Source of the DNA: an uncultured delta proteobacterium
Lineage (GTDB): Bacteria; Desulfobacterota; Desulfobacteria; Desulfobacterales; UBA11574
Direction: 5' to 3'
DNA length: 64,000 bases
Assembly (NCBI GenBank): GCA_963706295.1
Contig: CAVPLW010000006.1
Span: 337,277 to 401,276 of the forward strand
The position numbers and the translations under genes are program-made. Shown here piece by piece: positions 16,341-55,451 of this stretch (within the stretch, counting starts at the first letter, position 1; each line of letters starts with the position of its first letter). The notes below the pieces were generated by a model. It worked only from the letters and a program-made list of their open reading frames with translations. It was not told where the DNA came from and did not search any database.

Positions 16341-16982
16341 TTAATACCCGCCTCTCATACATCGTTTGCAGGGTGCAAAACCAGACCAAAATGCGTCCCA
16401 TTTTCTTGTAAAAAAGACCCTGTTTCTTTTTTCTATTCTTTTTCCATACGGACATGTTTTCAAATGAAACCGTTTCGATCTTTCACTCCCCAAATATTCT
16501 TCGCCCTCTTTATCATTCGAAATACGCCACATCCCTTGTTTAGCCGACATGGCATCCCTTTGGGTCTGTAACAACATCCTCTCGTATTTTACATTCGGTT
16601 TTCGAGGCAGTGCATAAGCGTATCCTTTTTCTATCATTTCTTTATTTATAAAAGTACCGTCTAATAAAAAAATGTATGCCAGTGATCGACCATAACGGTC
16701 ATACTTTTCTTTGTCGAATTCCAATCTCACCTTTTTTGATCGAACTAGTGATTGATTGTATTTTTTTGCCGCATATCCAAATGCTTCTGCTTTTTGATTG
16801 TCATGGGCAATCTCGGGTGCGTTTATGCCGATATAACGCACATGCCGGCCATCACTGAGTACAATAGTATCTCCGTCATTTACCCATTTTACCTTGTACC
16901 ATTCCTGCACTAATGCGGTTCGGCTGAATAACAAGACCGATAATAAAATTAGCTGTAAATACAAAAAATATTTTCGCATCAT
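16341..16982 (-). CDS. Secreted thermonuclease (SNase) family protein with a C-terminal Ada-type zinc-finger-like tail
   Basis: A signal-like N-terminus MMRKYFLYLQLILLSVLLFS is followed by the SNase core VNDGDTIVLSDGRHVRYIGINAPE. The C-terminus FHLKTCPYGKRIEKRNRVFFTRKWDAFWSGFAPCKRC follows the Ada metal-binding pattern. Confidence 0.8.
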   Translation of the reverse strand: MMRKYFLYLQLILLSVLLFSRTALVQEWYKVKWVNDGDTIVLSDGRHVRYIGINAPEIAHDNQKAEAFGYAAKKYNQSLVRSKKVRLEFDKEKYDRYGRSLAYIFLLDGTFINKEMIEKGYAYALPRKPNVKYERMLLQTQRDAMSAKQGMWRISNDKEGEEYLGSERSKRFHLKTCPYGKRIEKRNRVFFTRKWDAFWSGFAPCKRCMRGGY

Positions 16983-17011
16983 TTTATTATTATTTATCAA
17001 GTGGATGGACA

Positions 17012-18115
17012 CTAAATTGTATCTAAACCACAGTGCTTTGCAGCACTTTTATCCAGAATATTCGATAAACCGCCGTAATCTGAAGGAACAAATCCAAGAG
17101 ACTTTTTCCAGACCTCATCGTCTTCCATACATAAATAAATCATCACATCAGGAGCATAGTCCCTTATGTATGACACTATCTTTCGATACAGATCGATTCT
17201 TAATGGTTTAAAATAACGCATCTTTCCGTCAAGGCCGGATATAAATTCCCCGTAAATGATCTTTGATTTTGGAAAGCGTTTTTGTATGATCGGCTTCAAA
17301 GCAGGTACAAAGCGAAAAGTGCCAAGGCTGATCCATACAATATTTTCAGAAGATATATGGGAAAACAACTGCTCAACGACACTCGTGTATTCTTCTTCAC
17401 ACCCGTCATAGATCACCAAGGGATCAAAATGAAAGCCAAGGGGATAACCCCAGGACTCACATTTTGCAGCAGCACGAAGTCTATCAGAGAGAGATGTCGT
17501 ATGGCGTTCCTCATTTTTAATAATACGGGGTGTATTCAAAGACCATGACACAATCGTTTTGTGATTGTGGTGAAGTGCTTTCAGTTTTTTTATGTTCACT
17601 GTTTTAGTTTTAAGTTCCAATACGGCTCTGGACTGTTTTGAAAATTTAGGTACAAGAAGATCTGAGAGATCCGTCCAATTATCCCAAATCATGCTGTCTG
17701 TAAATTCTCCGGTTCCGATTCTGGTTAAGGTTTTATTTAAAAAAAGACGGTCTATCTCTACCAGAAGTTCATCGTGATTGACAAAATATTGCAGTATGGG
17801 TGGATGAAAGTAGGTTTGAAGAATGCAATATGAACAGTCCATGGTACAAAATGTGCCCATATGCAGAATCTGATAACCACAGCATGTATATGACCGTGTT
17901 CCGGGACATGGCTTAATAAAGGCGCCTTTATTTCGGGTGAGAAATAAGATCCTTTTGCCTTTTTGGACCGAATCATCAGACGATAAAACCGATTTATAAA
18001 CCTCTTTTGAACTATGAACGATTGAAACCGGTACATTAGGGATGCGTGATCGAATGGAAACAACCTGGGGGGAATGGAGTACCTGTTGATCGATATATAG
18101 TTTTACAAGGGACAA
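17012..18115 (-). CDS. Spore-photoproduct-lyase-like radical SAM enzyme
   Basis: The radical-SAM cluster motif CTMDCSYC is preceded by PCPGTRSYTCCGYQILHMG. Length and layout fit SplB-family proteins. The start is a TTG. Confidence 0.75.
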   Translation of the reverse strand: MSLVKLYIDQQVLHSPQVVSIRSRIPNVPVSIVHSSKEVYKSVLSSDDSVQKGKRILFLTRNKGAFIKPCPGTRSYTCCGYQILHMGTFCTMDCSYCILQTYFHPPILQYFVNHDELLVEIDRLFLNKTLTRIGTGEFTDSMIWDNWTDLSDLLVPKFSKQSRAVLELKTKTVNIKKLKALHHNHKTIVSWSLNTPRIIKNEERHTTSLSDRLRAAAKCESWGYPLGFHFDPLVIYDGCEEEYTSVVEQLFSHISSENIVWISLGTFRFVPALKPIIQKRFPKSKIIYGEFISGLDGKMRYFKPLRIDLYRKIVSYIRDYAPDVMIYLCMEDDEVWKKSLGFVPSDYGGLSNILDKSAAKHCGLDTI

Positions 18116-19778: not shown

Positions 19779-20336
19779 ATGAAAAAATTAAAAAAAAATG
19801 GAAAGCTAAAAGACGGCACTGTTGTTCTATTAAGGCCCATGGTCAAGGCCGACCGAAAAGGATTGGGAGAATTTTTTAACCGGCTTACCCCTTCGGTGCT
19901 CCAGTATGTGCGCAACGATGTCACCGACCCAAAAGTTCTCGACAAATGGTTCGATCAACTGAATTACGATCGTGTGTTTCCGCTTCTGGCCTTTAAAAAC
20001 GACAAGGTGGTGGCCAATGCAAGCCTTCACCGTGTGTCCCATGGCTGGAGGAAACATCTGGCCACCATCAGGATCGTCGTGGATACGGAATTCCATGGAA
20101 AAGGGCTGGGTACCCTGATGATCAACGAACTTGTCGATCTGGCCCAGGAATTTGGAATCGAGAAGCTCATGGTTGAGTTTCCCCTAAGGGCTCATGAAGC
20201 CCTGGCAATGTTCAAAAAGGCCGGGTTCAGTCCCAGGGGGGTGATCGAGGGGCTCATGAAAGACCGTCATGGTAAAGACTTGGACATAGTAATAATGGTG
20301 ATGGATGTGGCAGCATATGCCGATAAGTCAAGATAA
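19779..20336 (+). CDS. GNAT-family N-acetyltransferase
   Basis: The acetyl-CoA motif VVDTEFHGKGLGTLMINELVDLAQEFG (Q/RxxGxG/A type) is present in a 185-aa protein. Confidence 0.8.
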   Translation: MKKLKKNGKLKDGTVVLLRPMVKADRKGLGEFFNRLTPSVLQYVRNDVTDPKVLDKWFDQLNYDRVFPLLAFKNDKVVANASLHRVSHGWRKHLATIRIVVDTEFHGKGLGTLMINELVDLAQEFGIEKLMVEFPLRAHEALAMFKKAGFSPRGVIEGLMKDRHGKDLDIVIMVMDVAAYADKSR

Positions 20337-20355
20337 TTCCTAATGCAATGTTCGC

Positions 20356-21666
20356 TTAATAGAGCGGTAATATCTTTTTCCCGTAATCGGGAATGGAGGC
20401 GAGTAAATCTTCCCTGAGTGCTTTTGCATTCGGGTATCGATTTTCAGGATTTTTCTCCAGGCATTTCATTATGATGCGCTCTATTTCCTGATCTAAAGCT
20501 TCATTGAATTTGCTCGGTGGAGATGGAGGAGTCCTAAGGATAATGTCCATGAGTACCTTCTCCACTTCATGATAAAAAGGGAACATCCCCGTATAAAGCA
20601 CGTACATAACAACCCCGATGGCCCAGACGTCCGAGCGTCTCTGGCTTTTTCCCATAATTTGCTCTGGCGCCATGTAAGGCCTGGAGCCTGTTACAGTGGC
20701 GGACACCTCTTTTTCCCAGAGTTCTTTGGCTGCGCCGTAGTCCAGGAGTTTTATGGTTCCGTTTGGTCTTACCATCACATTCTCTGGCTTTATGTCTCGG
20801 TGGACGACCCCTAGATCGTGGGCATGAGCCACCACATCTGTGAGTTGAATCACGACGGACTCTACCTCTTTATCCTCGAGATCCCGCTCAATCACATCGT
20901 AAAGTGTTTTACCAACTATAAACTCCTGAATCAGCGTTTTTTTGTCCATTACTTCTATCATCTCGAAAACCTTGGGAACACCTTCATGACCGGTCAGACG
21001 CCTTAATATCCGGGCCTCCTTTTCGAACTTGGCATTTAAATTTTTATGCAGGGGAATCTTGGCAACAAAAATTTCTGGTGGATCCTTTGTCACGTCTTTT
21101 ACCTTCCATACCTCGCCAAAGCTCCCAATCCCCAACCTGTCCAGTTTCTCATACCGTTGTTTCATAAGCTCTTTTTCAGTTGACCTAGGATATAAACTTC
21201 GAAAAATCCTTTTCCAGAACCCAGGATAGCCGCCCTTTTCAATAGGGGCGCATACTCCTATTCTTAGCCTTGCATAATCGCCGCCATTTGCCATACGGGC
21301 GTGCACGTCGATCCTCTTTATAAGTTCTTTGGAATCAATGGGACAGGCGAGAAAGTCCGCCGCACCGGCTTTCAACGCCGATGCTGCCAGCTCCTCGGAA
21401 AAGCTTTCCAGAATCACAATCATCGGCTTTCCCAATTTAAGATCTTTGATGAACTGCTCAAGGGAAATGTCGGATTGTCTCAAGGACAAAAGGGCAACAT
21501 CTATTTTTTTCTTCTCTGCAAGCGTTCGCCGGGCTTCTTTCAAATCCATGGCTGTATAGACTCGATAACCGTAATTGTTAAGAAGCTTTTTTAGTCTGGC
21601 ACCTCTAATCTGGTCGCTGTCAATAACTAAAACAACTCTTTTTTTCCCATACGGGGTCTGATCCAT
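20356..21666 (-). CDS. Receiver-like domain fused to a Hanks-type Ser/Thr protein kinase
   Basis: The N-terminus has a CheY-like fold (VVLVIDSD...IDVALLSL...MIVILES...FLACP). The C-terminal kinase carries GIGSFGEVWKV, FVAKI, HRDIKPENVMV, DYG and PYMAPE. Confidence 0.85.
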   Translation of the reverse strand: MDQTPYGKKRVVLVIDSDQIRGARLKKLLNNYGYRVYTAMDLKEARRTLAEKKKIDVALLSLRQSDISLEQFIKDLKLGKPMIVILESFSEELAASALKAGAADFLACPIDSKELIKRIDVHARMANGGDYARLRIGVCAPIEKGGYPGFWKRIFRSLYPRSTEKELMKQRYEKLDRLGIGSFGEVWKVKDVTKDPPEIFVAKIPLHKNLNAKFEKEARILRRLTGHEGVPKVFEMIEVMDKKTLIQEFIVGKTLYDVIERDLEDKEVESVVIQLTDVVAHAHDLGVVHRDIKPENVMVRPNGTIKLLDYGAAKELWEKEVSATVTGSRPYMAPEQIMGKSQRRSDVWAIGVVMYVLYTGMFPFYHEVEKVLMDIILRTPPSPPSKFNEALDQEIERIIMKCLEKNPENRYPNAKALREDLLASIPDYGKKILPLY

Positions 21667-21807
21667 ATTTTATCATCTCCAGAAAATTGGCCAGTCAGAT
21701 TTTAGTTTGACACACAAACTCTATTTCTCTATACTCCATTTCCACGAAATAGCCGTGTTGTGTTTTTACCTTTGCATCAGCTCAATATAGAAATAGGAGG
21801 ATTTGCC

Positions 21808-22419
21808 TTGCCCTTAATGATATTCAATTCAGAAGAAATTCTCTATTACAGTGTAACCATACTCGTCATCGTTGCTTTCAGCTCCGGTTTTACGCGACTT
21901 TTCGCTTTAAGTTTCGCAAATGTAAAGCCTGCCGGGGAAGAGGCCGATTTCGATTTCAATCCCTTCGGCAACCTGGATATTGTGGGGACCATCGTCTTTT
22001 TTCTGGGAGGTTTCGGCTGGGGCAAACAAGTGGACGATCAAAAGATCGGCTTCAAGCATCAGAAGCTGGGATGGCTCCTTGTTTCGCTGGTTGCCCCCTT
22101 TGCCAGTCTGACCCTGGCGGTCAGTGCGGCTTACATGAAGCAATACTTCTGGACCGACCGCGTCGTCGAGGTCGTACTCCATCTGTGCGCGGCTGTGACC
22201 GCTTACCATATACTCCCCATTCCTCCCCTGGCAGGTTCTAGACTGATCTACCTGGCGTTGCCCGGTCAGAATCAGCGTGTCTGGAGAATGTACTCAAGGA
22301 TCGGACCCTATATTCTCCTGGCTTTCGTAATCGCTGAACGTTTTTCGGGGGTGCCGTTATTAAAAGAGACGGTTGCACCGGTTTTGGACGTTGTGACCAG
22401 GTTTGCCGAATACCATTAA
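21808..22419 (+). CDS. Site-2-protease (M50) family homologue lacking the metal-binding motifs
   Basis: NPFGNLDIVGTIVFFLGGFGWGKQV and LPIPPLAGSRL align with the M50 motifs NPxxHxDxxGT...FGWAKPV and PxPPLDG. The HExxH position reads SSGFT. The TTG at 21808 lies 7 nt after AGGAGG, and the ORF is open from 21760. Confidence 0.6.
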   Translation: MPLMIFNSEEILYYSVTILVIVAFSSGFTRLFALSFANVKPAGEEADFDFNPFGNLDIVGTIVFFLGGFGWGKQVDDQKIGFKHQKLGWLLVSLVAPFASLTLAVSAAYMKQYFWTDRVVEVVLHLCAAVTAYHILPIPPLAGSRLIYLALPGQNQRVWRMYSRIGPYILLAFVIAERFSGVPLLKETVAPVLDVVTRFAEYH

Positions 22420-22437
22420 CCCGAATTTATCACAAAG

Positions 22438-22472
22438 AAAGGCGGAGAGGGTTAGCCCCTCCCCGCCTTTTT
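22438..22472. terminator. Bidirectional rho-independent terminator
   Basis: aaaggcggagaggg, loop ttag, then cccctccccgccttttt. A-runs and T-runs flank both sides, and the hairpin sits between convergent genes. Confidence 0.7.
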
Positions 22473-22512
22473 AGTTTACGATTGATCTTAATCTGTCAAA
22501 ATCGACCGAGTT

Positions 22513-23796
22513 CTATGCACCTCTTTTTTGTGGTTTCTTGGTAACCATAGAAATCAGAATTGCGAGAATGAGCAGTCCGCCTGCGACATAGAATGCGGTG
22601 TCGTAAGATCCGGTTGCGTCCTTGATTTTACCTGCCAGTTTGGGCATGAAGGCGCCCAAACCCCAGCCTATGAACACGAGTCCGTAATTAAAGCCCAGAT
22701 TTTTCGGGCCATAGAAGTCAGCCGTATAGGAGGGCATCAGGGCCAGGCCGCCGCCGTAGACCCAGTAAGCGATCATACAGGCCGTGAACGTCATAAAAAG
22801 CGATTTGGCCGCAATCATCGCCGGCAGCGCGAATAGGCAGAGAGCCGCGACCGCGGCATTGATCATGTAAGCCCGGTCCCGGCCGATGATATCCGAGTAC
22901 TTGCCTGTCCCGACCCGGCCCGCGGCGTTCATAAAACCGCCTGCAGCAACCAGTATAAATCCTTGTTCCAGGAAGGGTTTTACAATTTTAGCGGCGTGAC
23001 CGATGATGAGAAGGCCCGCTTGGGTGTTCAAGCAGAACAGGGCCACCAACGCGTAAAACTGCCACGTTCCCATCATCTCTCCTGCCTTCCAGTCAACCAC
23101 AGATGCAGCAGCTTTCTTTGTCGCTGCCGTCTCAGGCGGTTGAGGTGGAACGTATCCCTCTTCAGGCCATTTCAAAATCTGGGCCGCGATAAAGATGACG
23201 ATCAGGTAAGCGACACCAAGTACTAAAAATGACGCCGAAAGCGAATAACTGGTAATAATCCACTGGATGAGCGGGGACACGTAAAAGGCCGCGCCGCCGT
23301 AACCCGCGACCGTAATACCAATCATGACACCCACCTGATGGGGACCGACCCATCTTCGTGTTGCGGGAACGGGAGCGGCATAACCAATGCCCATGGCGAT
23401 ACCGCCGCCGACGCCGAATCCCCAGAGGATTCCGGCGTAGGAGTGAGCCGTACCGGCGATAATCATACCCAGTCCCATGAAGACGGCAGAGATGGAGCCG
23501 GCCACGGAAGGACCGTATTTATCCTGGATCTTCCCGCCGGGAATCATGAGCAGGGCAAAGACTAAAATACACAATGACGCCGGGTTGGAGGCCTGTTCCG
23601 CAGTAAGGGCGGCGGTCCAGCCGTGGGCCTTCATGTAAACGTCGTCTGTGAGATACTTGAGCCATACGGACCACGCATACAAACAGCCCAGACATAAGTT
23701 GATGGTCGTACCAGCGAGGATAACAGCCCATCCACGTCCGGGTATTGCATCTACCGGTTTATTGTAACCCTCGGCATACTTTCCTAAAAATGCCAT
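22513..23796 (-). CDS. MFS transporter, oxalate/formate-antiporter-like
   Basis: 427 aa with about 12 TM segments. It is Gly/Ala-rich in the MFS manner, and the N-terminus WAVILAGTTINLCLGCLYAWSVW is typical of the OFA subfamily. Confidence 0.75.
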   Translation of the reverse strand: MAFLGKYAEGYNKPVDAIPGRGWAVILAGTTINLCLGCLYAWSVWLKYLTDDVYMKAHGWTAALTAEQASNPASLCILVFALLMIPGGKIQDKYGPSVAGSISAVFMGLGMIIAGTAHSYAGILWGFGVGGGIAMGIGYAAPVPATRRWVGPHQVGVMIGITVAGYGGAAFYVSPLIQWIITSYSLSASFLVLGVAYLIVIFIAAQILKWPEEGYVPPQPPETAATKKAAASVVDWKAGEMMGTWQFYALVALFCLNTQAGLLIIGHAAKIVKPFLEQGFILVAAGGFMNAAGRVGTGKYSDIIGRDRAYMINAAVAALCLFALPAMIAAKSLFMTFTACMIAYWVYGGGLALMPSYTADFYGPKNLGFNYGLVFIGWGLGAFMPKLAGKIKDATGSYDTAFYVAGGLLILAILISMVTKKPQKRGA

Positions 23797-24191
23797 TAGT
23801 ACACCTCCTTAAAGTTTGAAACATTCAGTTAATTACCGGAGTCTTTAAGGTACGTTTTAGCTGATATTCTATGACACTTCTTTGACCTGTTACGAATTCA
23901 GCTAACTCGTCCAGTTAAGGTGTCATTTTGAATAACCAACAGCTATTTAGCCACATGGCATAAAGCATCCTTACGATTTCCGGTTTAAAAAAAACATAGC
24001 CACTGGAAGAGAGGGTTGTTTTGCTGATCGTGCGTCAAAAAAACACACCAGCTTCTTCTCTTCTCATAGCCAAACTGTGATATCACCCCCTTTCCGGTTA
24101 ATTGTTAAAATAAGCCGCTTTTTCTTTTGTTTTGGCCATTATGAACCAAACCATTTAATACCTGAATCGATCTGCTTAGAACCGGTGAATT

Positions 24192-43708: not shown

Positions 43709-46700
43709 TTATTTTCCATCTAATATAAGCTCCGCAAGAAGAGCATCAACAAGGGTTTTATCAGGAATATCTTTGTAAATACCGAATTGAGGGCCTTTGT
43801 CCGGATCCACCCCTCTTATAAAGATGTAAAAAACACCGCCAAAATGTCGTTCATAGCTAAATTCAGGTATTCTCAGCTGAAGGTATTGATGAAGTGCCAG
43901 GACATATAAATGATATTGCAAAATGTAAAAATCCCTGCTCATCACATTATTCAAAACATTTTTGCCATAGTCTTCAACGCTGCTTCCTAAATAGTTCGAT
44001 TTCCAGTCCACCAACCAAAAACGATCCTGGTCATGAAAAACCATATCGATGTAACCTTTCATAAAACCTTTGGTTAAAGAAAAGCTGAGCTTACCAAGCC
44101 GGTCCGGAAAATCATCAACAAGATCGATGCCCCCATAATCAGCAAATATCTTTCTGAGTCGATTCGGTGACAGCGGTTTGAGTGGAAAATAAAACTCCAT
44201 TTCATTGATCCTGTTGCGGCATTGAACGGAAGAAAGCATCAAAGTGGTTTTGTTTATGGAAAGTGGTACTGAAAGAACATTGTCCACCATGGCACAGACA
44301 GGTTTTAGCCATTTGGATTCAAATCTGTAATCCTTTAATTTGTTTGATATCAATTTTATTCTTTCTTCTGTACAGCTTTCAGCAAAATCAAGATGTTCAA
44401 AAACGTCATGGAAGAATATCCCGGCCCGGGTTCCTTTTGGAAATGAAAAAATGTTTTCATTTGTAAATAAATGCGAATCGTTTTCCGTTATAGGTGTATA
44501 CAAATCATGGGATACGTCACGATCCGGAAGTTCTGCATCCAGTGTCCGTTGTGATATGAGACGTGAAAAACTGGAGATGTTCCATGTGGTATCAATTTTT
44601 CCTGAAAAATGTCTGCAAGACAACCCTTCCTTTTTATCCTCTTCTGCCAAGTATTCCATGGTATCGTCAAGCGGTAGCGGAACAATTTTTATTGACCCTT
44701 CTGACTTGGTTGATAGCTGTTTTAAGTCTTCGAGCAAATCCTCTTCGTTTTTTTCTAAAACATCTTCTCTTAAAGATGTCAGCAGATTTTCTCTTAAAAT
44801 ATCTTCTGATTGCCCTTTATAATGTAACAGATAAGCGATGGCAGAAGTTTCAGCGGTATTGAATCTACCCCATACAAGATAACATTTATGTATCGCTCGT
44901 GTTATTGCAACATAAAGCAACCTCAGGTTTTCAGCCAGGCGTTCATTTTGAGCAATGGCAAGGTGTGTGCCGAAGTTTTTTGAACCAAGATCAAGGGTGA
45001 GGGTTTCATTTTTATCCGTGTCATGGAACAGAATCTCGCGGTCTTCAATTAAGGACCCCTCCCATGCAAAGGGACAAAACACAACAGGGAACTCAAGACC
45101 TTTACTTTTGTGAATGGTGATAATTTGTACGGCCTGATCATCGCTTTCAAGACGAAGTTGATGCGTTTCAGATTCAGGTACTTCAGCGTTTCTTTGTTCT
45201 GAAAGCCATTTAAGCAGACCGGTGATACCAAGCTTTTTTTCAGATGATTCCTGATGTAGAATTTCTGCCAAATGGAGTAGATTGGTCAGTCTCCTTTCAC
45301 CGTCAGGAAAACTCAAAAGGCGTTCCCTAACCTTTTCCTCGGCCATCAACAGCCGAAACATCCGGATAAAGCCATACCGTGTCCATAAGCGAAAATATTC
45401 TCTGAACCTGCTGTATTTGGCTTCCAACCAGAACGGTTCCCCGCCGACCGAATCGAGGTCTTCTCCAAAAACACCGAGGATATCGGTCACAACCGCGGCA
45501 TTAAATGCCCTTTCGTTTCCGGGTTCGGCAATGCTTAACAGAATTCTTTCCATTTCCATTGCCTCATGGGTATGGAATATGTTTCCTGTATGATGGAGAA
45601 CCGATGGGATACTTTTTAATGAAAGGTTCTTTTTTATTATCTGCGCCTGTCGATTTGTTCTGACAAGAACAGCAATATCTTTTGCATTAATGCCATGGGA
45701 GAGATTGTTTTTATTTTCCAGAGATAAGGTGGGATATTTCACCCGCAACCGCCCTTGCGATGAGTGGTACAGCCTCGGTTTTATTCAGTGGTTTAGCTGT
45801 GTTGGCATTTTTGTTTGCTCCCAAATACCATAATGTCAACGCCGGTAAAGATCTTTCGTTCATCGACTTGATTTTCTTTCCGGAAATACCCTTTTCAAAT
45901 CCAATCTTATCAAAGACAAACGGTGCATTTATATTTGAGAATATGGTATTTACTGCGGTTATCAAATTGGGATTTGATCGCCAGTTTTTTATCAAGGTAT
46001 ATTTTGAATCTGTGTTTCGCACAGCTTTCATATAAGAAAAAATATCTGCTCCCCGGAAACTGTATATGGATTGTTTTGGATCTCCGATCATAAAAAGTGT
46101 GCTCTTTTTTGAATCGAAAATCCGGGTAAAAATGATATACTGAAAAGAATCCGTATCTTGAAATTCATCAACAAGGGCGGCACTGTATTTTTTCCGAATT
46201 ATTTGAGCGAGCTTTTTCCCACCGGTATCTTCGAGTGCATTTTTAAGCTTTATTAAAAGATCGTCATAGAATTGAATATTGTTTTGTTTTTTTCTTACCA
46301 AAAGCTGTTCCCGGGTGAATTTGAAACACTGGGCCTTAAAATACATCAAATATGTTTCCATCTCAGATTCAAGGAAAACACCTTTGTGGTAAAGTTTATC
46401 ACAGATATCAAAATATTCATGTGAAAGGGGTCTACAATTTTTCCGGGTCGAATTTTCTATTTTGGCTGCGGTAAATTTTTCAAAACCTTTAAATAAAGGA
46501 AAACCGCTAGATTTTTCATCAACAAACTTGTCCATTAATGCGATCATGGAGGCAACCATCAGGTCTCTTTTTGAAACATCCATTTGCATTGTTACTGATT
46601 TCAAACTGCCATAAATTGATCCGCTAAGAGATGAATCTTTCAACAAATGTGTCACCTGGATACGTGATTTTGGCCAAATAGTTTGCAGTCTTTTGAACAT

Positions 46701-47336
46701 CGCTCTAAAGTCATTAAGGCTTGTCAAATCAGGCTGTTCAAGCTCTGGAACAATCTTTATATCTGCGGTTCTATTTTTTGTCAGAAGCCTTAAAAAATAC
46801 TCTGGTCCGGATATTTTTTTTAGGAGAAAACTTATAAATTCCATGGGCAAACTGTAAAAATGTTTTCTCCAGAAATCATCCACAATTTCCCGTGTCAAAC
46901 TTGTGGGATCGGCCACAAGTTCTGTGTCGAACAAACTCTGTGTTTCAAAAGCATTCTCATGGAGAATCCGCTGACAAAAACCGTGTATGGTAAATATCGC
47001 GGCATTGTCAAATTCCATCACCGCATCTTGAATCAATTGAATTGCTAAATCCCGATTATCATATTTTTTAACAATGGTTTTGATGAAGACATCATGACTC
47101 GAATCCTTTAAAAAAGCGGATTTTGCATCCAAAAGCGTGTTGCGGATTCTTTCTTTAAGCTCTTCAGTGGCAGCCTTGGTAAACGTTACCACCAGTATTT
47201 GATTTACCGTTAATTGTTTTTCGAGAATAAGTCTTAAAAAGAGGCCGGCAATGGTATAGGTCTTACCGGTACCTGCGCTTGCCTCAATGAGATTGGTTCC
47301 TGTGAGGGGAGTGTTGATTGGATCAAAAATTTTCAT
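43709..47336 (-). pseudogene. recB: Exodeoxyribonuclease V beta subunit interrupted by a single frameshift (ORFs 45711..47336 and 43709..45748)
   Basis: The N-terminal ORF has UvrD-type motif I (EASAGTGKTYTIAG). The C-terminal ORF has the helicase C-domain (ITIHKSKGLEFPVVF) and the RecB nuclease motif (GYIDMVFHDQDRFWLVDWKSNYLG). The two frames overlap at a T5-A-T4 tract (45708-45717). Confidence 0.85.
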
Positions 47337-49279: not shown

Positions 49280-52279
49280 TCAGCCCGCTACATCTAACGC
49301 CTCCACCCGATTTACGGTCATGGTGATGGCGCCGAAGTCTTCTTCCACCTTCCCGTGGAGGATAAAGGGACGGCTTCGATCCAGGATGGCACAGAAGCGG
49401 CGGTAGGCTTTGGGGAAAAAGATCGTTTCAATCAGCCCGGTGTCGTCTTCAAAAGTCAGAAATTCCATGGCATCGCCATGCTTGGTATGCACAACCTTTC
49501 CGGTAATCAACAGACCGGCAATGCGAACATGACGGCCGATGAAGCGATGCAAGTCCATGGCTTTGACAGTCTTTAGTTTCCTTAACGTTTCGGCGTATAA
49601 CATCATGGGATGCCGATCGCACAAAAAACCCAGGGCTGCATATTCTTGCCGCAAACGCTCTCTTTTCTTCTCCGGCGGGAACGCCGGTTTTGGCACTGCC
49701 ATCCTCTCATTAAACAAATCCCCTGCCCCGTATCGGTTTGATCTGGATTTTTGCCAGCAGGCCAGCTCCCACAACAGGGCAGCGCGATTCTCTTTTGGAT
49801 GAAGCAAATCAAAAGCACCAGCGTTAATCAGAGAGCGGGCTTCAGGGCTGGCCGGCCGAATTCGATCAAGGAAATCAACGATGTCGTTGTAAGGTTTTTC
49901 TTTGCGCCCTGAAACAATACGTTTGCATGTTTCTGAACTTACATTCTTTGCGGACGACAATCCCACCCGAATGATTCCAGCGCTGCCTTTCCAAAGGATA
50001 TCGCTGTTGTTTACGTCAGGGGGCAGAATTTCCACACCCGTGCGGCGTGCTTCCGACACGTAAGCAAAGGTGCTGTAAAAACCGCCCTGATTGCTGATGA
50101 CCGCGGCCATGAACTCTGCAGGATAATGGGTCTTCAGATAGGCTGCCTGGAAAGAGACCCGGGCATAGCTTGCACTATGAGGCTTGCAAAATGAATAACC
50201 GCTGAAACTCATCATCATGCTCCAGATGGCCGAAATCTGATCGTTACGAACCCCCCTTGCTTGTGCACCTGAAGTGAAACGCGCTTGATAATCATCCAAT
50301 TTTCGGTTCTTATCTTTCTTGGACATAATCTTGCGAAGGCCATCAGCGTCAGCATGTGAAAATCCGGCCAGCGCCACAGCGGTTTTGGAAACATCCTCTT
50401 GATAGACCATGATTCCATGGGTTTCCTCAAGCACATCCGAAAGTAAGGGATGAATCGGCTCCCATCTGCCGCCATGCAGGCGACGGACGTATTCACGGAT
50501 AAACTCATTGGCCGCCGGCCGTATGATACTGCTGTTGATTACCAGATGTTCAAAATCGCCGACCTTTGTCTTTTTCTGCAACATGCGCATGGCGGGGCTT
50601 TCGATGTAAAAGCAGCCCATGGTATTCCCTTTTGCCACATTCGCCTGTGTCGCGCCATCATCTTCCGGCTCCCAGAGCTGCTCGTCAAATACCGTACGGT
50701 TATTCCTAAGATTTGCAATGGCATCTCGGATAACACCCAGGCTGCGATTACCGAGAAGATCGATTTTAACCAGACCGCTCTCTTCTGCAGCATCTTTTTC
50801 CCACTGAATAATCGGAACACCTTTGGGGGCAAGTTCAACAGGAACATAATTGTCTATGGGCTCAGGGGTAACCACCACACCACCCGGATGAACAGAAATG
50901 TAGCGTGGAATACCAATGATGTACCGGGCTGTACGAATAATTTTTGGCCAGGGCCTTGGAAAATCAAATTCGGAAAGCTCGGGCAATTGTTTAAGCTTTT
51001 GAAGAAAATCTTCTTTAGTGTGATCCGCTCGCCAGAACCATGGAAGACGTTTGGTGACACGGCCGATCTCTTGATCGGTAAGCCCGAAGACCTTGGCCAC
51101 CTCCCGTATCGCCATGCGCGGCCGAAAAGTGACGTGATTACAGATCAGCGCAGCGTGGCCTTTATATTGGTCCAATACGGACTGCAAAACCTTGTCCCGT
51201 TCATCCCAGGCAAAATCGATATCGATATCCGGTGAATCTGAACGCCCGGGGTTCAGAAACCGCTCGAAATACAAGTTGTGCTTGATGGGACAGACATTGG
51301 TAATTCCCAGGCTGTAAGCTACCAGTGATGCCGCACCGCTTCCCCGGCCGCAAATACGCGGGCTGCGAGACACGATATCCTGAACCACAAGAAAATATGA
51401 TGAAAATCCCATCTCCTTAATGATACGAATTTCATGCTCCAGGCGATCCACAACGGTTTCAGACAGATCATCTCCGTACCGTTTTTTCGCCCCCTTATAA
51501 GCGACATCCCGCAGTGCTTGATCGGCACCATTTGATTGTATATCGGTCCATGGCGGCAGAACAAGCCCACGGCAAGGACCGGTGAATGTCAACTGTTCTG
51601 CAATGGCTTCAGTGGCTCGAAGTACATCCGGCCAGATGGCAAAACGTCTGGTATACTCGGATGCCGTTGCCAGCCATGCGTCGGGCGACGTTGTCTCTTC
51701 CGTCGTTAATCGGGAAAGAGAGGTGTTCAAATCAATGGCCCGCAGTATCCGGTGTGTTTTGAAATCATCCGGATCTGTAAAAAAACTTCCCGGCGTGAAC
51801 AGCATCGGAATGCCAAGATATCGGGACGTCTTCCGCAATCGAAGGGCAATGCCGTCCGGTTTGCCTGAAACCGCCGCTGCAACCGTTAATCCGGCTTCGT
51901 GCCACTGTGTCAAAAGCTCTGGATGTTGTGTGATGATCACCAATCCTCCGGCATGGGTGAGGATAACGGATTTTAGGTCAAACGCCGCATCAATATGACG
52001 ACGTGTAATGATACGGCAAAGATTACGGTAGCCCTGATCGCTTTTCACAAGACAAACAGCTCGGTATCCGGTTTCGGAATCCGTCAGTTCCGCACCGACA
52101 ATCGGAGTTATATTCTCGCGCTTACAACTCTTTAAAAAGGGCCACAGGCCGTATAAATTATTGGTATCCGTGATCGCAAGACGGCGATAACCCCGTTTTT
52201 TTGCAGCAGCACAGATCTTCTCCGGAGAGCATGTGCCCCACATCAATGAATAATACGAATGAACGGTCAAAGGAACCAT
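49280..52279 (-). CDS. dnaE2: Error-prone DNA polymerase III alpha-like subunit (DnaE2/ImuC)
   Basis: It has a PHP N-terminus (VHSYYSLMWGT...AITDTNNLYG) and a PolIIIA core (PDIDIDF, GIPRYISVHPGGVVV, SIIRPA). It is 999 aa and lies downstream of imuB and lexA. Confidence 0.9.
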   Translation of the reverse strand: MVPLTVHSYYSLMWGTCSPEKICAAAKKRGYRRLAITDTNNLYGLWPFLKSCKRENITPIVGAELTDSETGYRAVCLVKSDQGYRNLCRIITRRHIDAAFDLKSVILTHAGGLVIITQHPELLTQWHEAGLTVAAAVSGKPDGIALRLRKTSRYLGIPMLFTPGSFFTDPDDFKTHRILRAIDLNTSLSRLTTEETTSPDAWLATASEYTRRFAIWPDVLRATEAIAEQLTFTGPCRGLVLPPWTDIQSNGADQALRDVAYKGAKKRYGDDLSETVVDRLEHEIRIIKEMGFSSYFLVVQDIVSRSPRICGRGSGAASLVAYSLGITNVCPIKHNLYFERFLNPGRSDSPDIDIDFAWDERDKVLQSVLDQYKGHAALICNHVTFRPRMAIREVAKVFGLTDQEIGRVTKRLPWFWRADHTKEDFLQKLKQLPELSEFDFPRPWPKIIRTARYIIGIPRYISVHPGGVVVTPEPIDNYVPVELAPKGVPIIQWEKDAAEESGLVKIDLLGNRSLGVIRDAIANLRNNRTVFDEQLWEPEDDGATQANVAKGNTMGCFYIESPAMRMLQKKTKVGDFEHLVINSSIIRPAANEFIREYVRRLHGGRWEPIHPLLSDVLEETHGIMVYQEDVSKTAVALAGFSHADADGLRKIMSKKDKNRKLDDYQARFTSGAQARGVRNDQISAIWSMMMSFSGYSFCKPHSASYARVSFQAAYLKTHYPAEFMAAVISNQGGFYSTFAYVSEARRTGVEILPPDVNNSDILWKGSAGIIRVGLSSAKNVSSETCKRIVSGRKEKPYNDIVDFLDRIRPASPEARSLINAGAFDLLHPKENRAALLWELACWQKSRSNRYGAGDLFNERMAVPKPAFPPEKKRERLRQEYAALGFLCDRHPMMLYAETLRKLKTVKAMDLHRFIGRHVRIAGLLITGKVVHTKHGDAMEFLTFEDDTGLIETIFFPKAYRRFCAILDRSRPFILHGKVEEDFGAITMTVNRVEALDVAG

Positions 52280-52283
52280 GTTA

Positions 52284-52320
52284 GGATTGATGATTTATGA
52301 TTGACGATTTAAGATTGAAA
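52284..52320. repeat. Word element, family E half copy (GATTGATGA words)
   Basis: ggattgatgatttatgattgacgatttaagattgaaa matches 20 of its first 21 nt with the left arm at 54424. It lies in the imuB-dnaE2 spacer. Confidence 0.7.
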
Positions 52321-52361
52321 ATTTAAATAAGCCTTTGTCAATTCTTCCCCAAATAATCAAT

Positions 52362-53534
52362 CTAATTAAGGGTTCTTCCCACGCGAATGGCGTTGAATCC
52401 GTAGTGACGGCGGATGGAATCAAGGGCAAAAATCAGATTGTCGCTTTTCCTTTTTTCTTGTTCGTGTTCGCTAAAAAGCGCCATTTGTGCCGGGGGATAG
52501 GTCAGACGATGGCAAATCAAACGCAGATGACGGATACGCACACGACGTTTCCAGGCCCCTTCAAGAGCGGTCTTCGCCACAGCAAATAAACGAAAATCAT
52601 TGGCCGTCGCCGGATCGGCGGTGACCTGTCGGGTCATCCGCCTCCCGTCGGAATAGTCGATGACAATTCTGATCCGCCTTGCCGTCAGTCGTCGTTTGCG
52701 CAGGTCAATACCGGCCTTCTCGACAAGCCGATACAATGCACCTTCCACGGATGTCGCCGTGTTGGTATCGTTTCCAAACGTATAATCGACACTGACCGTG
52801 GGGTGTTCCTGTCCCACAGGTAAGACCGGCGACGGGTCAATGCCACGCACGGCATTGTACAGACTGTGACTGCGGTTGCCAAACATCACATACAATTGCC
52901 CCATGGACAGATTGGCCACATGGCCGGTGCGGGTCAGATTGAATTCCCGGAAACATTTCAGGTCTTCCCTTTCGATACCGGGAACAAGTTGAATCGGCAA
53001 GGGTTTCATAAAACACGCTTCCTCACCTGCCCCGACAATATATTCACCCACCGGTTTGACCATGCGTGTCGCCACTTTGGCCACCAGCTTGTTGGGGGCA
53101 ACCGACCAGATCGGATCTAAGCCCATATTGGCGCGCATCTCTTTCCGGATGCGCCATGCGATGTCAGGCGGCGGACCGAAAAGTCTCCCTGTTCCGGTGA
53201 CATCTACGAACAAATGTCCATCGTGGTCGCTTTTTTCGATCAACGGCGAATAGGGCAATGCACATTTTAAAAGCTGAACCATTGCACGTTCGTAACGGAA
53301 AGGGTGAAGCGGCAGCACAACGGCGTCCCGACAATAGCGAAGTGCCCGTCGCAGGGCCATTCCTTTACGAACGCCATTTTGATAAGCCTCTTCACTCATG
53401 TCATATACTGTTGCCCGTACTGCGGTATCATGGGCGATGATCACCGAACGTTCCTTCAGACGTCGATCCACAAGTCGCTCCACGGCCACGGCAAAATCAG
53501 CCACATTGATATGGATGATTGAGCGTTCGCGCAT
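52362..53534 (-). CDS. imuB: ImuB-like Y-family-polymerase homologue (predicted catalytically inactive)
   Basis: It has the Y-family fold. The N-terminus SIIHINVADFAVAVE replaces the DinB-type HIDMDAFYASVE acidic residues. It lies between DUF72 and dnaE2. Confidence 0.8.
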   Translation of the reverse strand: MRERSIIHINVADFAVAVERLVDRRLKERSVIIAHDTAVRATVYDMSEEAYQNGVRKGMALRRALRYCRDAVVLPLHPFRYERAMVQLLKCALPYSPLIEKSDHDGHLFVDVTGTGRLFGPPPDIAWRIRKEMRANMGLDPIWSVAPNKLVAKVATRMVKPVGEYIVGAGEEACFMKPLPIQLVPGIEREDLKCFREFNLTRTGHVANLSMGQLYVMFGNRSHSLYNAVRGIDPSPVLPVGQEHPTVSVDYTFGNDTNTATSVEGALYRLVEKAGIDLRKRRLTARRIRIVIDYSDGRRMTRQVTADPATANDFRLFAVAKTALEGAWKRRVRIRHLRLICHRLTYPPAQMALFSEHEQEKRKSDNLIFALDSIRRHYGFNAIRVGRTLN

Positions 53535-53535
53535 A

Positions 53536-54380
53536 TCAGACCACCATCAAGCCCCGCTCCTTTAACAACGCTGCCATTCTTTGGGCATTCTCCGGCGCCT
53601 GAGCCCGAACATGATTGTTAAAAAAAATGACGCCTTTACGCGCCCGACTGATCATGGGTTCAATTTTGTTTTCAATCCACGCATGAAGTTCATCGTCAGA
53701 ATAGCTGTAATCAAACTGAAGCTGCATATTCCCCGAACGCCAACCCTTGGCATTTCGGCCATGAAAACGCACATAAAACAGATCCGGGTTGGTGACCACG
53801 TCCAAAACCGGAAACAGGTTCGGCAAATCCGGTGCATCGACGCCCACCAGCGTCACCTGACGGCGTTCCAATTCAGAAAACACCCGATCGCTGGCCCAGG
53901 AACGATGTCGGAACTCAATGGCCAGAGGCAAACCATGAAGCTTGTCGAGCAAAGCTGCCAGGTATTTTCGGTTTGATGTTGTGCGGAGGAACGAGGGGGA
54001 AGCTGGATCAAAACAGCGACGAGCTGTCCGGTCTGAACGAGTGGAACGATACCCTCCCTATAGAGAACCGTCTGATCGCGCCATTGCTGCCGGTCGATTT
54101 CATGGGTCAGGGTGCGTGTTAACTTGGCAGCGAACAAAAACTCCTGAGGAACTTGTTGGCGCTGGCGTTCAATGGCTTCAGCTTTGGGCATCTGATACCA
54201 GGTATAATTAAGTTCGGTAATCAAAAAGCACCGAGCATATCGCTGTAACATCTTGCCCGATTTTGTGCCAGAGGGATAAAATCCGGCGTCGACCCATTCT
54301 GCATAGGAAAAGCCGCTTGTGCCTACATACAATTGGCAGGTTTTGGAATCTTTTTGTTCTTCAGTGGTTATTGCCGTCAT
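53536..54380 (-). pseudogene. DUF72 (YecE-like) family gene interrupted by a frameshift in a G5 run (ORFs 53853..54380 and 53536..53952)
   Basis: The N-terminal part has YVGTSGFSYAEWVDAGFYP. The C-terminal part has LAIEFRHRSW...FYVRFHGRN. Adding one G to the run at 53995-53999 gives a continuous LIQLPPSFLRTTSNRKYLAALLDKLHGLPLAIEFRH, which restores the family's LPPSF motif. Confidence 0.85.
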
Positions 54381-54423
54381 GTGTTGCTCTGAACCTAAAC
54401 GATTTCGGAAGAATTCCCTTTTT

Positions 54424-54611
54424 GGATTGATGATTTATGATTGTTGATTGACGATTGAAGGCTTCGCTCCGGTAATTTAAGTTTTCACTTTTCAACCATC
54501 AATTTTCAATTGATCTGCCGCCGACTCCTATTTCCTTTTTTCTCTTTCCTATTTCAACCTCTGCCGGTTCAATCAACAATCGACAATCATCAATCATCAG
54601 TCGACAATCCC
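54424..54611. repeat. Word-hairpin element, family E full copy
   Basis: The left arm ggattgatgatttatgattgttgattgacgattgaag (54424-54460) is an imperfect reverse complement of the right arm caatcaacaatcgacaatcatcaatcatcagtcgacaatccc (54570-54611). The interior holds a pyrimidine word tract that is the reverse complement of the words at 7203-7240. Confidence 0.8.
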
Positions 54612-55231
54612 ATGGGTCCTCTCTGAACACCGATAACCTTACCCTGGATCAGGATCTCATTGAAATCATACCTGACCGCCTTGTAGGCAGGATTTTCAGG
54701 ACGCAGCTCAATATGTTTTTTTCTGCGAAAAAAACGCTTGACCGTCGCTTCTTCTTGATTGATCAGGGCCACAACGATTTCACCATCTTCGGCAAATTGA
54801 CGCGGCTCACAAATCACCAGGTCTCCATCCAAAATAGCGGCATCCCTCATCGAGTCGCCTTTTACCCTAAGCGCAAACAGGTTTGGACCACGGTACAAGG
54901 TTGAATCGATCACAACGCTCCCACCCCATTCCTGCTGGGCATACAACGGTAATCCAGCAGCGATGTCCCCCACGATAGGCACTTCCCGCCACCGCATGAT
55001 GCCTGCCGTTTTTCGGATGCGATTCAGCAGATGGATCGTGCGGCTGTAACGACCGTCACGTTTGAGAATTCCTTTTTTCTCAAGCGCTTTTATAAGCTGA
55101 GATATCGCCGCATGGCTCACCCCCATCTCAACTGCCGACTGCCGTAAGCTGGGCGCTTTCCCGGTTCTGATAATTTCATGCTCCAAATAGCTAAAAAATC
55201 GTTGCTGTTTTGGAGTGAGTTCTGGTTGCAT
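54590..55231 (-). CDS. lexA: LexA repressor
   Basis: It has a wHTH N-terminus, the Ala-Gly cleavage site (VGDIAAGLP), the Ser nucleophile (VKGDSM) and Lys (ATVKRF). Confidence 0.92.
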   Translation of the reverse strand: MQPELTPKQQRFFSYLEHEIIRTGKAPSLRQSAVEMGVSHAAISQLIKALEKKGILKRDGRYSRTIHLLNRIRKTAGIMRWREVPIVGDIAAGLPLYAQQEWGGSVVIDSTLYRGPNLFALRVKGDSMRDAAILDGDLVICEPRQFAEDGEIVVALINQEEATVKRFFRRKKHIELRPENPAYKAVRYDFNEILIQGKVIGVQRGPMGLSTDD

Positions 55232-55415: not shown

Positions 55416-55451
55416 AATGTAAATGTCAATGTAAATATTATTGTAAAGCTA
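55416..55451. promoter_or_regulatory. Three phased 12-nt direct repeats (AATGTAAATGTC / AATGTAAATATT / ATTGTAAAGCTA)
   Basis: TGTAAA occurs at 55418, 55430 and 55442, an exact 12-nt period, and a fourth time at 55380. The repeats lie in the divergent lexA / metallophosphoesterase intergenic region. Confidence 0.35.

Follow-up and report, generated by a model that had tools for sequence, protein, structure and literature searches.

A LexA-linked lexA-DUF72-iPolY-dnaE2 cassette of Desulfobacterales: DUF72 as a likely added component of an ImuA-less mutasome

Introduction

What does a gene of the DUF72 family (PF01904) do next to the genes of a translesion polymerase? The question is raised by a 64-kilobase (kb) stretch of contig CAVPLW010000006.1 from an uncultured delta proteobacterium (the whole stretch is called the window hereafter). 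Its minus strand features, at 49280-55231, four co-directional genes, coding in this order for the repressor LexA, a DUF72 protein with a TIM (triosephosphate isomerase) barrel fold, an inactive Y-family polymerase (iPolY) and a C-family polymerase of the DnaE2 type. The original prediction had recognized the four genes at the same coordinates, had named the Y-family gene imuB and had assigned DUF72 to the place of ImuA.

The best reading of the data is that DUF72 does not replace ImuA, and is a component added to an ImuA-less lineage by insertion between lexA and iPolY. Altogether, we estimate at roughly 60% the probability that the four genes make up a LexA-controlled operon, which is a Desulfobacterales-wide, mobile elaboration of the ImuA-less mutasome cassette, with DUF72 added to it, likely as a damage-processing enzyme. 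DUF72 proteins are widespread, and two members have been solved (three PDB entries, the oldest deposited about twenty years ago); the function of the family is still unassigned. What is new here is the name of the conserved fourth gene in a known ImuA-less cassette, present in the literature only as an unnamed spacer gene. No link of DUF72 to imuB or dnaE2 was found in the literature searched.

Conservation of the gene order

A genome scan seeded with the DUF72 protein of the window, corrected for a frameshift described below, yielded at least 578 confirmed relatives. The best 80 were analyzed; they reside in 80 species-representative genomes, nearly all from Desulfobacterales and related metagenome-assembled genomes (MAGs), and are 63-95% identical in sequence. 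Neighboring genes were called by tblastn with the four proteins of the window, and the denominators given here are the loci with room for the gene in question. The iPolY gene is found directly downstream of DUF72 at 73 of 75 loci, lexA upstream at 66 of 68, and dnaE2 downstream at 54 of 59. The exceptions include two solo DUF72 genes (L009 and L036) and three loci missing a dnaE2 match (L029, L040 and L048); at L029, the one inspected among the three, a stretch of masked bases (N) begins right after iPolY.

An independent sample, in which DUF72 was not the seed, was obtained by scanning metagenome contigs for the 18-mer core of the candidate LexA operator (see below). Among the 120 loci so collected, 72 have lexA after the motif; at least 700 nucleotides (nt) are available beyond lexA in 35 of these, and DUF72 is the next gene in 34 of the 35. 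Three of these contigs carry variants of the cassette, namely lexA-iPolY-dnaE2 lacking DUF72 (L192), the operator immediately followed by iPolY-dnaE2 (L108), and the operator immediately followed by DUF72-iPolY, with no lexA (L195). The variants show that the cassette is modular, under a single operator.

The four cassette proteins co-diverge across loci (identity correlations r = 0.93-0.97), DUF72 being the most conserved of the four. Since dozens of species-level genomes share the gene order, chance does not explain the arrangement. The adjacency of DUF72 to the polymerase genes, on which the original prediction had based a link of the family to translesion synthesis or damage processing, is accordingly not a peculiarity of one genome, and the link is upheld by its conservation in both samples.

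Two separate contigs of a single MAG (MFD09779.bin.1.125; L045 and L073) each carry a complete cassette, the bin hosting two cassettes or being mixed. Cassettes were also found in bins assigned to distant phyla, as Planctomycetota (L064), Promethearchaeota (L014), Chloroflexia (L076) and Pseudomonadota (L072). The L064 cassette has a DUF72 protein with 65% identity and an upstream LexA with only 35%; mis-binning, or transfer with a swapped regulator, are both possible. Among distant DUF72 genes, that of a Deinococcus taeanensis plasmid (L203) has a gene for SRAP, the SOS response-associated peptidase, and that of a Bradyrhizobium barranii plasmid (L204) has ligD and alkB, within a few kb; these are anecdotal hints of repair, and no operon is formed at either locus.

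Organization of the cassette

The features of the cassette are collected in Table 1.

Table 1. Features of the lexA-DUF72-iPolY-dnaE2 cassette in the window
Feature	Position	Strand	Description
lexA	54590-55231	-	First gene of the predicted operon, autocleavable repressor; TIGR00498, Peptidase_S24, LexA_DNA_bind
DUF72 (PF01904) TIM-barrel gene	53536-54380	-	Reading frame broken at 53995-53999, where a C5 run lacks 1 nt
iPolY, gbDinB2-like	52362-53534	-	IMS and IMS_C domains; QxxLF clamp motif; RecA-N-terminus-like tail
DnaE2-type C-family polymerase, 999 amino acids	49280-52279	-	PHP, Pol III alpha core, finger, HhH and OB domains
Candidate LexA operator	55417-55446	-	Tandem T[TG]ACAT hexamers overlapping the lexA promoter
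Imperfect inverted repeat pair, 40-nt arms	54420-54459 and 54568-54607		In the lexA-DUF72 spacer

The first gene scores 166 bits on the NCBIfam LexA equivalog TIGR00498 (cutoff 111). Its product includes both the winged helix-turn-helix and the S24 peptidase domains, and has the residues needed for autocleavage that had been pointed out from the sequence, the Ala91-Gly92 cleavage site, Ser127 in GDSM and Lys165 in VKR. The last gene, separated from iPolY by 82 nt, codes for a PHP/PolIIIA polymerase which, as originally described, has 999 residues and the domain architecture of DnaE2. The protein stops directly past the OB fold, the tau-binding C-terminal domain being absent; it reaches neither the NCBIfam cutoff for DnaE (678 vs. 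1002 bits) nor that for error-prone DnaE2 (580 vs. 939 bits).

The stop codon of DUF72 (53536-53538) and the start codon of iPolY (53532-53534) are separated by one base. The short interval, noted from the beginning as an argument for coupled expression, does argue for co-transcription of the two genes in the window. It is not a general feature of the cassette, since across loci the DUF72-to-iPolY gap varies between -6 and 620 nt (median 60).

The spacer between lexA and DUF72 is far shorter in many relatives than in the window, where it is filled by the inverted repeat listed in Table 1. The arms are 83% complementary, lie 108 nt apart and occur once in the window; the z-score of the corresponding RNA fold is -2.0. 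The repeat overlaps the last lexA codons, and gives LexA a short C-terminal extension which cannot be aligned with most relatives. The 54420-54607 interval probably derives from a small inserted element, or forms an RNA hairpin, perhaps regulatory.

The DUF72 protein

Both peptides which had been quoted as hallmarks of the family are present in the product of the second gene. On PF01904 the corrected protein reaches 188 bits, over positions 1-216 of 217, and matches to RecA, SulA or ImuA are absent at E<=10 in Pfam and NCBIfam. The gene is hence DUF72 and not imuA, as had been proposed. Matches to the crystal structures of TM1631 (1VPQ, E=1e-41) and EF0366 (1VPY, E=1e-26) indicate clear homology. 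Assignment as an orthologue of YecE was ruled out (43.8 bits on NF007637, cutoff 412).

Residues invariant in the family are kept in the cassette DUF72 (S25, N58, W61/Y62, K86, H93, Q126, E156/R158, R205/H207), including those predicted to contact DNA in TM1631. DUF72 being the slowest-evolving protein of the cassette, and its invariant polar residues being retained, an active enzyme fits better than a degenerate scaffold.

The fold was modeled with AlphaFold2 on a shallow alignment, using the homologue P0121, 95% identical to the window protein (predicted local distance difference test score, pLDDT, 66; predicted template modeling score, pTM, 0.71). The model matches 1vpq, 1vpy and 1ztv with template modeling scores (TM-scores) of 0.72-0.79. 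When searched with Foldseek, the same model, with its pLDDT of only 66, matches UVDE (TM-score about 0.45, E from 6e-3 to 2e-2) and endonuclease IV (TM-score 0.39, E 1.5e-2), the nuclease entries retrieved (2j6v, 3c0l, 3bzj and 2x7v) all being weak matches. In a 2025 paper of the Venclovas laboratory (PMC11791011), the DUF72 TIM barrel is termed closely related to UVDE. By modeling, Konc et al. (2013), and a follow-up study, predicted TM1631 to be an endonuclease that binds DNA and resembles endonuclease IV; the protein was modeled on a complex of endonuclease IV with DNA, and lesions unpairing two nucleotides were indicated as possible targets.

In the window, DUF72 is split into two overlapping open reading frames (ORFs), 53853-54380 and 53536-53952, which cover positions 1-99 and 106-216 of PF01904, respectively. 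An intact protein of 281 amino acids, with the family motif QLPPSF, is obtained when the C5 run at 53995-53999 is extended by one C. At this site the window reads CTTCCCCCTCG, the closest relatives (93-95% protein identity) CTTCCCCCCTCG or CTTCCCCCTTCG, that is, either C6 or C5 followed by TT. The homologues among the matches listed, all at least 69% identical, are all intact and about 281 amino acids long.

The recB gene of the window (43709-47336, minus strand) is split too, in a helicase N-terminal ORF (45711-47336) and a helicase C-terminal ORF (43709-45748) lying in different frames, which overlap at the A-rich junction 45711-45748 (GGAAAATAAAAACAATC). Two indels at homopolymer-rich sites within 64 kb, one in DUF72 and one in recB, suggest errors of assembly, and the frameshift in DUF72 is more likely an error of this kind than the mark of a true pseudogene.

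The inactive Y-family protein

The iPolY protein starts with IIHINVADFAVAVE and is 390 amino acids long, which is also the median of the family. Catalytic residues were monitored in 69 orthologues, in columns derived from an alignment to E. coli DinB, whose sequence served column numbering only, and to Pol IV structures. D8 is replaced by N in 69/69 proteins, D10 by A in 67/69, and E104 by H in 69/69. The window protein itself has N in place of D8 and H in place of E104. As judged from these replacements, iPolY is catalytically inactive. Its best matches are to Pol IV (DinB), both in NCBIfam (E=7e-50) and in PDB (E=7e-29), and are all under the equivalog cutoffs.

A QxxLF beta-clamp motif (Q350-F354) follows the little finger, and is near-invariant across the orthologues. 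No domain, and notably no ImuB-C domain, was found after IMS_C, the protein ending about 35 residues past the clamp motif. The tail NLIFALDSIRRHYGFNAIRVGR (approximately residues 367-387) is kept in the 69 orthologues with the pattern L..A.D.IR.RFG..AI..GR, which corresponds to the RecA-N-terminus-like motifs published for the 'gbDinB2-like (other inactive)' group (PMC6511836, Table S4), as LLTAMDNIRSKFGDSAIYPGR. By these sequence traits iPolY fits the published ImuA-less, gbDinB2-like group of inactive PolY proteins. The initial description of the gene as ImuB-like thus holds for the loss of the catalytic residues, and fails for the identity with canonical ImuB, which was rejected on account of the length of 390 amino acids without ImuB-C, and of the RecA-N-terminus-like tail.

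Candidate LexA operator

A search for exact palindromic LexA boxes upstream of lexA in 67 loci gave nothing coherent. An expectation-maximization search of the same 67 upstream regions identified a motif with the consensus TTACATTGACATTTAC(AT), which consists of T[TG]ACAT hexamers, three in tandem, the middle being occupied by a TTGACA -35 box. About two-thirds of the regions match the core of the motif exactly, and most of the others contain a copy with slight variations. In the window, the exact core TTACATTGACATTTACAT is located at 55417-55434 on the minus strand, and includes the TTGACA -35 box; a further degenerate copy extends to 55446. The core occurs once in 64 kb (0.1 occurrences expected by chance). 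The exact 18-mer was found in 42 of the 80 related loci, always in single copy and always upstream of lexA.

From the conservation of the motif and its position we infer that the tandem hexamers are the LexA operator of the cassette, to which LexA is predicted to bind. LexA motifs organized as direct repeats are known elsewhere, as in Alphaproteobacteria. No published operator was found for Desulfobacterales, although no dedicated literature search was made; the motif provides a candidate operator for the order, apparently of the direct-repeat type. A promoter-like match is located at 55435-55406, in a scan which as a whole is no better than that of shuffled sequence.

About 30 metagenome matches to the 18-mer are not followed by lexA; they define no coherent gene set, include neither recA nor uvrA, and look like chance matches. 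No wider LexA regulon was seen in this exact-match scan, which would miss degenerate sites. At L166, where no lexA is near, an exact 18-mer (at 2260) is located about 90 nt upstream of a gene for a DnaQ-like exonuclease of 453 amino acids, being either a chance match or a second member of the regulon.

Mobility and base composition

The cassette also resides in a cultured organism. In Desulfosarcina ovata subsp. sediminis 28bB2T, the four genes are carried by Do28_1, a mobilizable plasmid of 136 kb of the MOBQ type (locus L201, NZ_AP021877.1 57246-72067), with traA and an IS200/IS605 transposase gene within a few kb. RefSeq names the products as lexA, 'DUF72 domain-containing protein', 'hypothetical protein' (iPolY) and 'DNA polymerase III subunit alpha'. 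The operator variant ATACATTGACAGATACAT is found 52 nt before lexA.

At each of the 27 loci whose flanks are complete, the guanine-plus-cytosine (GC) content of the cassette exceeds that of the flanks, the mean difference being 8.5 points; values in the window are about 0.51 for the cassette and about 0.40 for the flanks. Flanking genes are common only to the closest relatives (L001-L008). The GC contrast and the limited synteny of the flanks fit repeated horizontal transfer, and, taken together with the plasmid location, indicate that the cassette behaves as a horizontally mobile unit.

Role of DUF72

The four genes could work as follows. DNA damage would trigger the self-cleavage of LexA, freeing the tandem-hexamer operator over the -35 box, and the four genes would be expressed. 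The dead Y-family protein would be a scaffold, contacting the beta clamp through QxxLF and recruiting RecA through its RecA-N-terminus-like tail, and DnaE2, recruited by iPolY, would carry out error-prone filling or bypass. DUF72, the fourth component, would most likely recognize or incise damaged DNA, as UVDE or endonuclease IV do, and would make or clean the 3' ends or the gaps to be filled by iPolY-DnaE2. The model agrees with a published study (PMC8102061) in which DnaE2 fills excision gaps in non-replicating cells. DUF72 is thus probably a damage-processing TIM-barrel enzyme, a biochemical role which we derive from context and residue conservation. Its near-obligate, co-evolving position in an SOS operon, and the independent recruitment of the family to operons of the B-family polymerase PolB2, make a strong case of guilt by association for damage processing. 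It is a bolder and tentative extension, possible at best, that DUF72 proteins are a new class of lesion-recognizing DNA endonucleases or processing enzymes feeding specialized polymerases.

Several observations weigh against the interpretation of the cassette as a LexA-controlled operon with DUF72 as damage-processing enzyme. The DUF72 gene of the window is frameshifted, and may be non-functional in this genome. The similarity of the P0121 model to UVDE and endonuclease IV is no better than that to unrelated TIM barrels, the ranks of which are interleaved with those of the nucleases. DUF72 crystal structures have no bound metal (PMC3828134), and the literature mentioning DUF72 gives no biochemical activity for any protein of the family. 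Scans of the cassette for sigma-70 promoters and terminators are no better than those of shuffled sequence, and the operator assignment depends on the conservation of the motif, LexA binding being a prediction. DUF72 genes of the same clade also stand alone, away from the cassette (L009, L036), and one cassette has no DUF72 (L192), which means that the polymerase pair is not strictly dependent on DUF72. Distant DUF72 genes found on plasmids of Agrobacterium, Deinococcus and Bradyrhizobium lie outside polymerase operons.

Three other explanations were weighed. DUF72 might be a non-catalytic structural subunit which plays the role of ImuA or ImuA' by bridging the dead Y-family protein and DnaE2. 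The gene is directly upstream of iPolY, in the window 1 nt lies between its stop codon and the start codon of iPolY, the adjacency is conserved, and an ImuA-like ORF is absent from the window, in which, as had been anticipated, no ORF of at least 150 amino acids is RecA-like. Sister cassettes are nevertheless known in which nothing separates lexA from iPolY, in genomes lacking ImuA. This is the arrangement ('LexA->iPolY->DnaE2') reported for Geobacter, Pelobacter, Syntrophobacter and two out of three Nitrospira species (PMC6511836, Table S4). As lexA directly precedes the inactive PolY gene in these bacteria, there is no 'ImuA slot' for DUF72 to take, and DUF72 is absent also at L192 and L108. 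The RecA-N-terminus-like motif of iPolY indicates RecA as the partner. In PolB2 operons, of which SRAP-DUF72-iRadA-PPB2-PolB2 is an example, DUF72 is found with iRadA, an inactive RecA homologue (PMC11791011), and hence accompanies a RecA-like subunit rather than replacing it. Finally, DUF72 is a TIM barrel and not a RecA fold, and retains polar residues conserved throughout its family, whereas ImuA and ImuB are degenerate. The structural role is therefore quite improbable, and the original assignment of DUF72 to the place of ImuA is not retained.

DUF72 might alternatively be an SOS-co-regulated enzyme which does not act on DNA, cleansing for example damaged nucleotides or metabolites, and travels with the cassette outside the polymerase pathway. 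TIM barrels are mostly small-molecule enzymes. The neighbors retrieved by the fold search include sugar epimerases and glycosidases with scores similar to those of UVDE, the DUF72 crystals show neither metal nor DNA, solo copies exist, and most DUF72 genes of other phyla are not located beside polymerases. We consider this explanation unlikely in view of the independent recruitment of DUF72 beside two unrelated translesion polymerases, DnaE2 and PolB2, of its tight co-divergence with the polymerase genes, and of the match between the conserved surface residues and the published prediction of DNA binding. To a similar degree we doubt that DUF72 is a true pseudogene in the window, where the cassette would act as a plain LexA-iPolY-DnaE2 system. 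A 1-nt deletion does split the gene, and cassettes lacking DUF72 occur naturally (L192 and L108). The deletion sits, however, in a homopolymer, and apart from it neither half is damaged, their identity to intact orthologues being about 95%; the split of recB at an A-rich site of the same 64 kb suggests indel errors in the assembly. A damage-processing enzyme added to an ImuA-less cassette is the reading that we prefer.

If DUF72 proteins do process lesions, the cassette would be a LexA-switched, self-contained and plasmid-transferable 'incise and fill error-prone' module in which DUF72 is combined with a dead Y-family scaffold and with DnaE2; archaeal PolB2 mutasomes would be served by the same enzyme, and a first function would be available for a family including E. 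coli YecE and B. subtilis YunF. D. ovata 28bB2T, being cultured and bearing the cassette on a plasmid, offers a test system for the function of DUF72.

Other features of the window

A further gene pair is located on the minus strand at 16341-18115, a radical S-adenosylmethionine gene resembling spore photoproduct lyase (17012-18115) being immediately followed by a gene resembling staphylococcal nuclease (16341-17012); it is possibly another pair of DNA-damage genes. A second GC-rich patch (0.46-0.52 vs. about 0.40) spans 20001-24000, and hosts genes for a response-regulator/Ser-Thr kinase fusion (20356-21666), a membrane-type protein (21760-22419) and a major facilitator superfamily transporter (22513-23796). 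The 21760-22419 ORF, which has no Pfam match, was considered as a candidate ImuA and rejected, its translation being a hydrophobic protein of membrane type.

Comparison with known systems

The closest relatives of the cassette are the iPolY-DnaE2 systems in which ImuA is missing both from the operon and from the genome, and RecA has been proposed to be bound via the RecA-NT motif (Timinskas and Venclovas 2019, PMC6511836). Shared traits are an inactive PolY protein near the PolY core, with a RecA-NT-like motif and no ImuB-C, and the arrangement of the genes in one direction, with lexA upstream and dnaE2 directly downstream. In Table S4 of the same work, Nitrospira moscoviensis and Sphaerochaeta feature 'iPolY->DnaE2', Desulfococcus oleovorans Hxd3 and Desulfocapsa sulfexigens 'LexA->{1}->iPolY->DnaE2'. 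The loci of the latter two species are absent from the DNA loci compared here; extrapolating from the other Desulfobacterales, the '{1}' gene is almost certainly DUF72. The differences are that the intervening gene, unnamed there, is identified here as DUF72 and is near-universal in Desulfobacterales cassettes, and that a conserved operator is added. The catalogue of mutasomes is refined accordingly by a four-gene, mobile, ImuA-less form.

The canonical imuA-imuB-dnaE2 cassette is likewise a LexA-linked operon, GC-rich and horizontally dispersed, in which a dead Y-family protein with a clamp motif is associated with a second polymerase of the Pol III alpha type. The cassette described here differs in having neither the RecA-fold ImuA or ImuA' nor ImuB-C, and in the additional TIM-barrel gene.

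The DUF72 crystal structures, TM1631 (1VPQ) and EF0366 (1VPY, 1ZTV), have the motifs GTSG, ELN.T.Y, K....TH, Q.PP.F, EFRH.SW, RFHGRN and FFNN in common with the window protein. A difference from TM1631, EF0366 and YecE is the operon context of the cassette DUF72, which is specific to the clade. UVDE and endonuclease IV have in common with DUF72 the TIM-barrel fold, sequence identity being only about 10%, and differ from it in that DUF72 crystals show no metal cluster.

In the small operon lexA-imuB-C-polY of Geobacter sulfurreducens, another deltaproteobacterium, one accessory gene is similarly interposed between lexA and the Y-family gene. The accessory protein is there a beta-rich ImuB-C domain protein, PolY is active and DnaE2 missing, whereas the present cassette features a TIM barrel of 281 amino acids, a dead PolY and DnaE2.

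DUF72 ranks eighth among the neighbor families of the polB2 translesion operons, with 119 cases, beside SRAP and iRadA (PMC11791011). As in the present cassette, DUF72 is located there at the 5' side of an operon which is damage-inducible, encodes a multi-subunit translesion polymerase and is often linked to LexA; the polymerase is the B-family PolB2 in those operons, the C-family DnaE2 with a dead Y-family protein here. DUF72 is an enriched neighbor (119 operons) in the PolB2 set, and is present in about 97% of the cassettes described here, by which DUF72 is tied to translesion polymerases a second time, independently and far more tightly.

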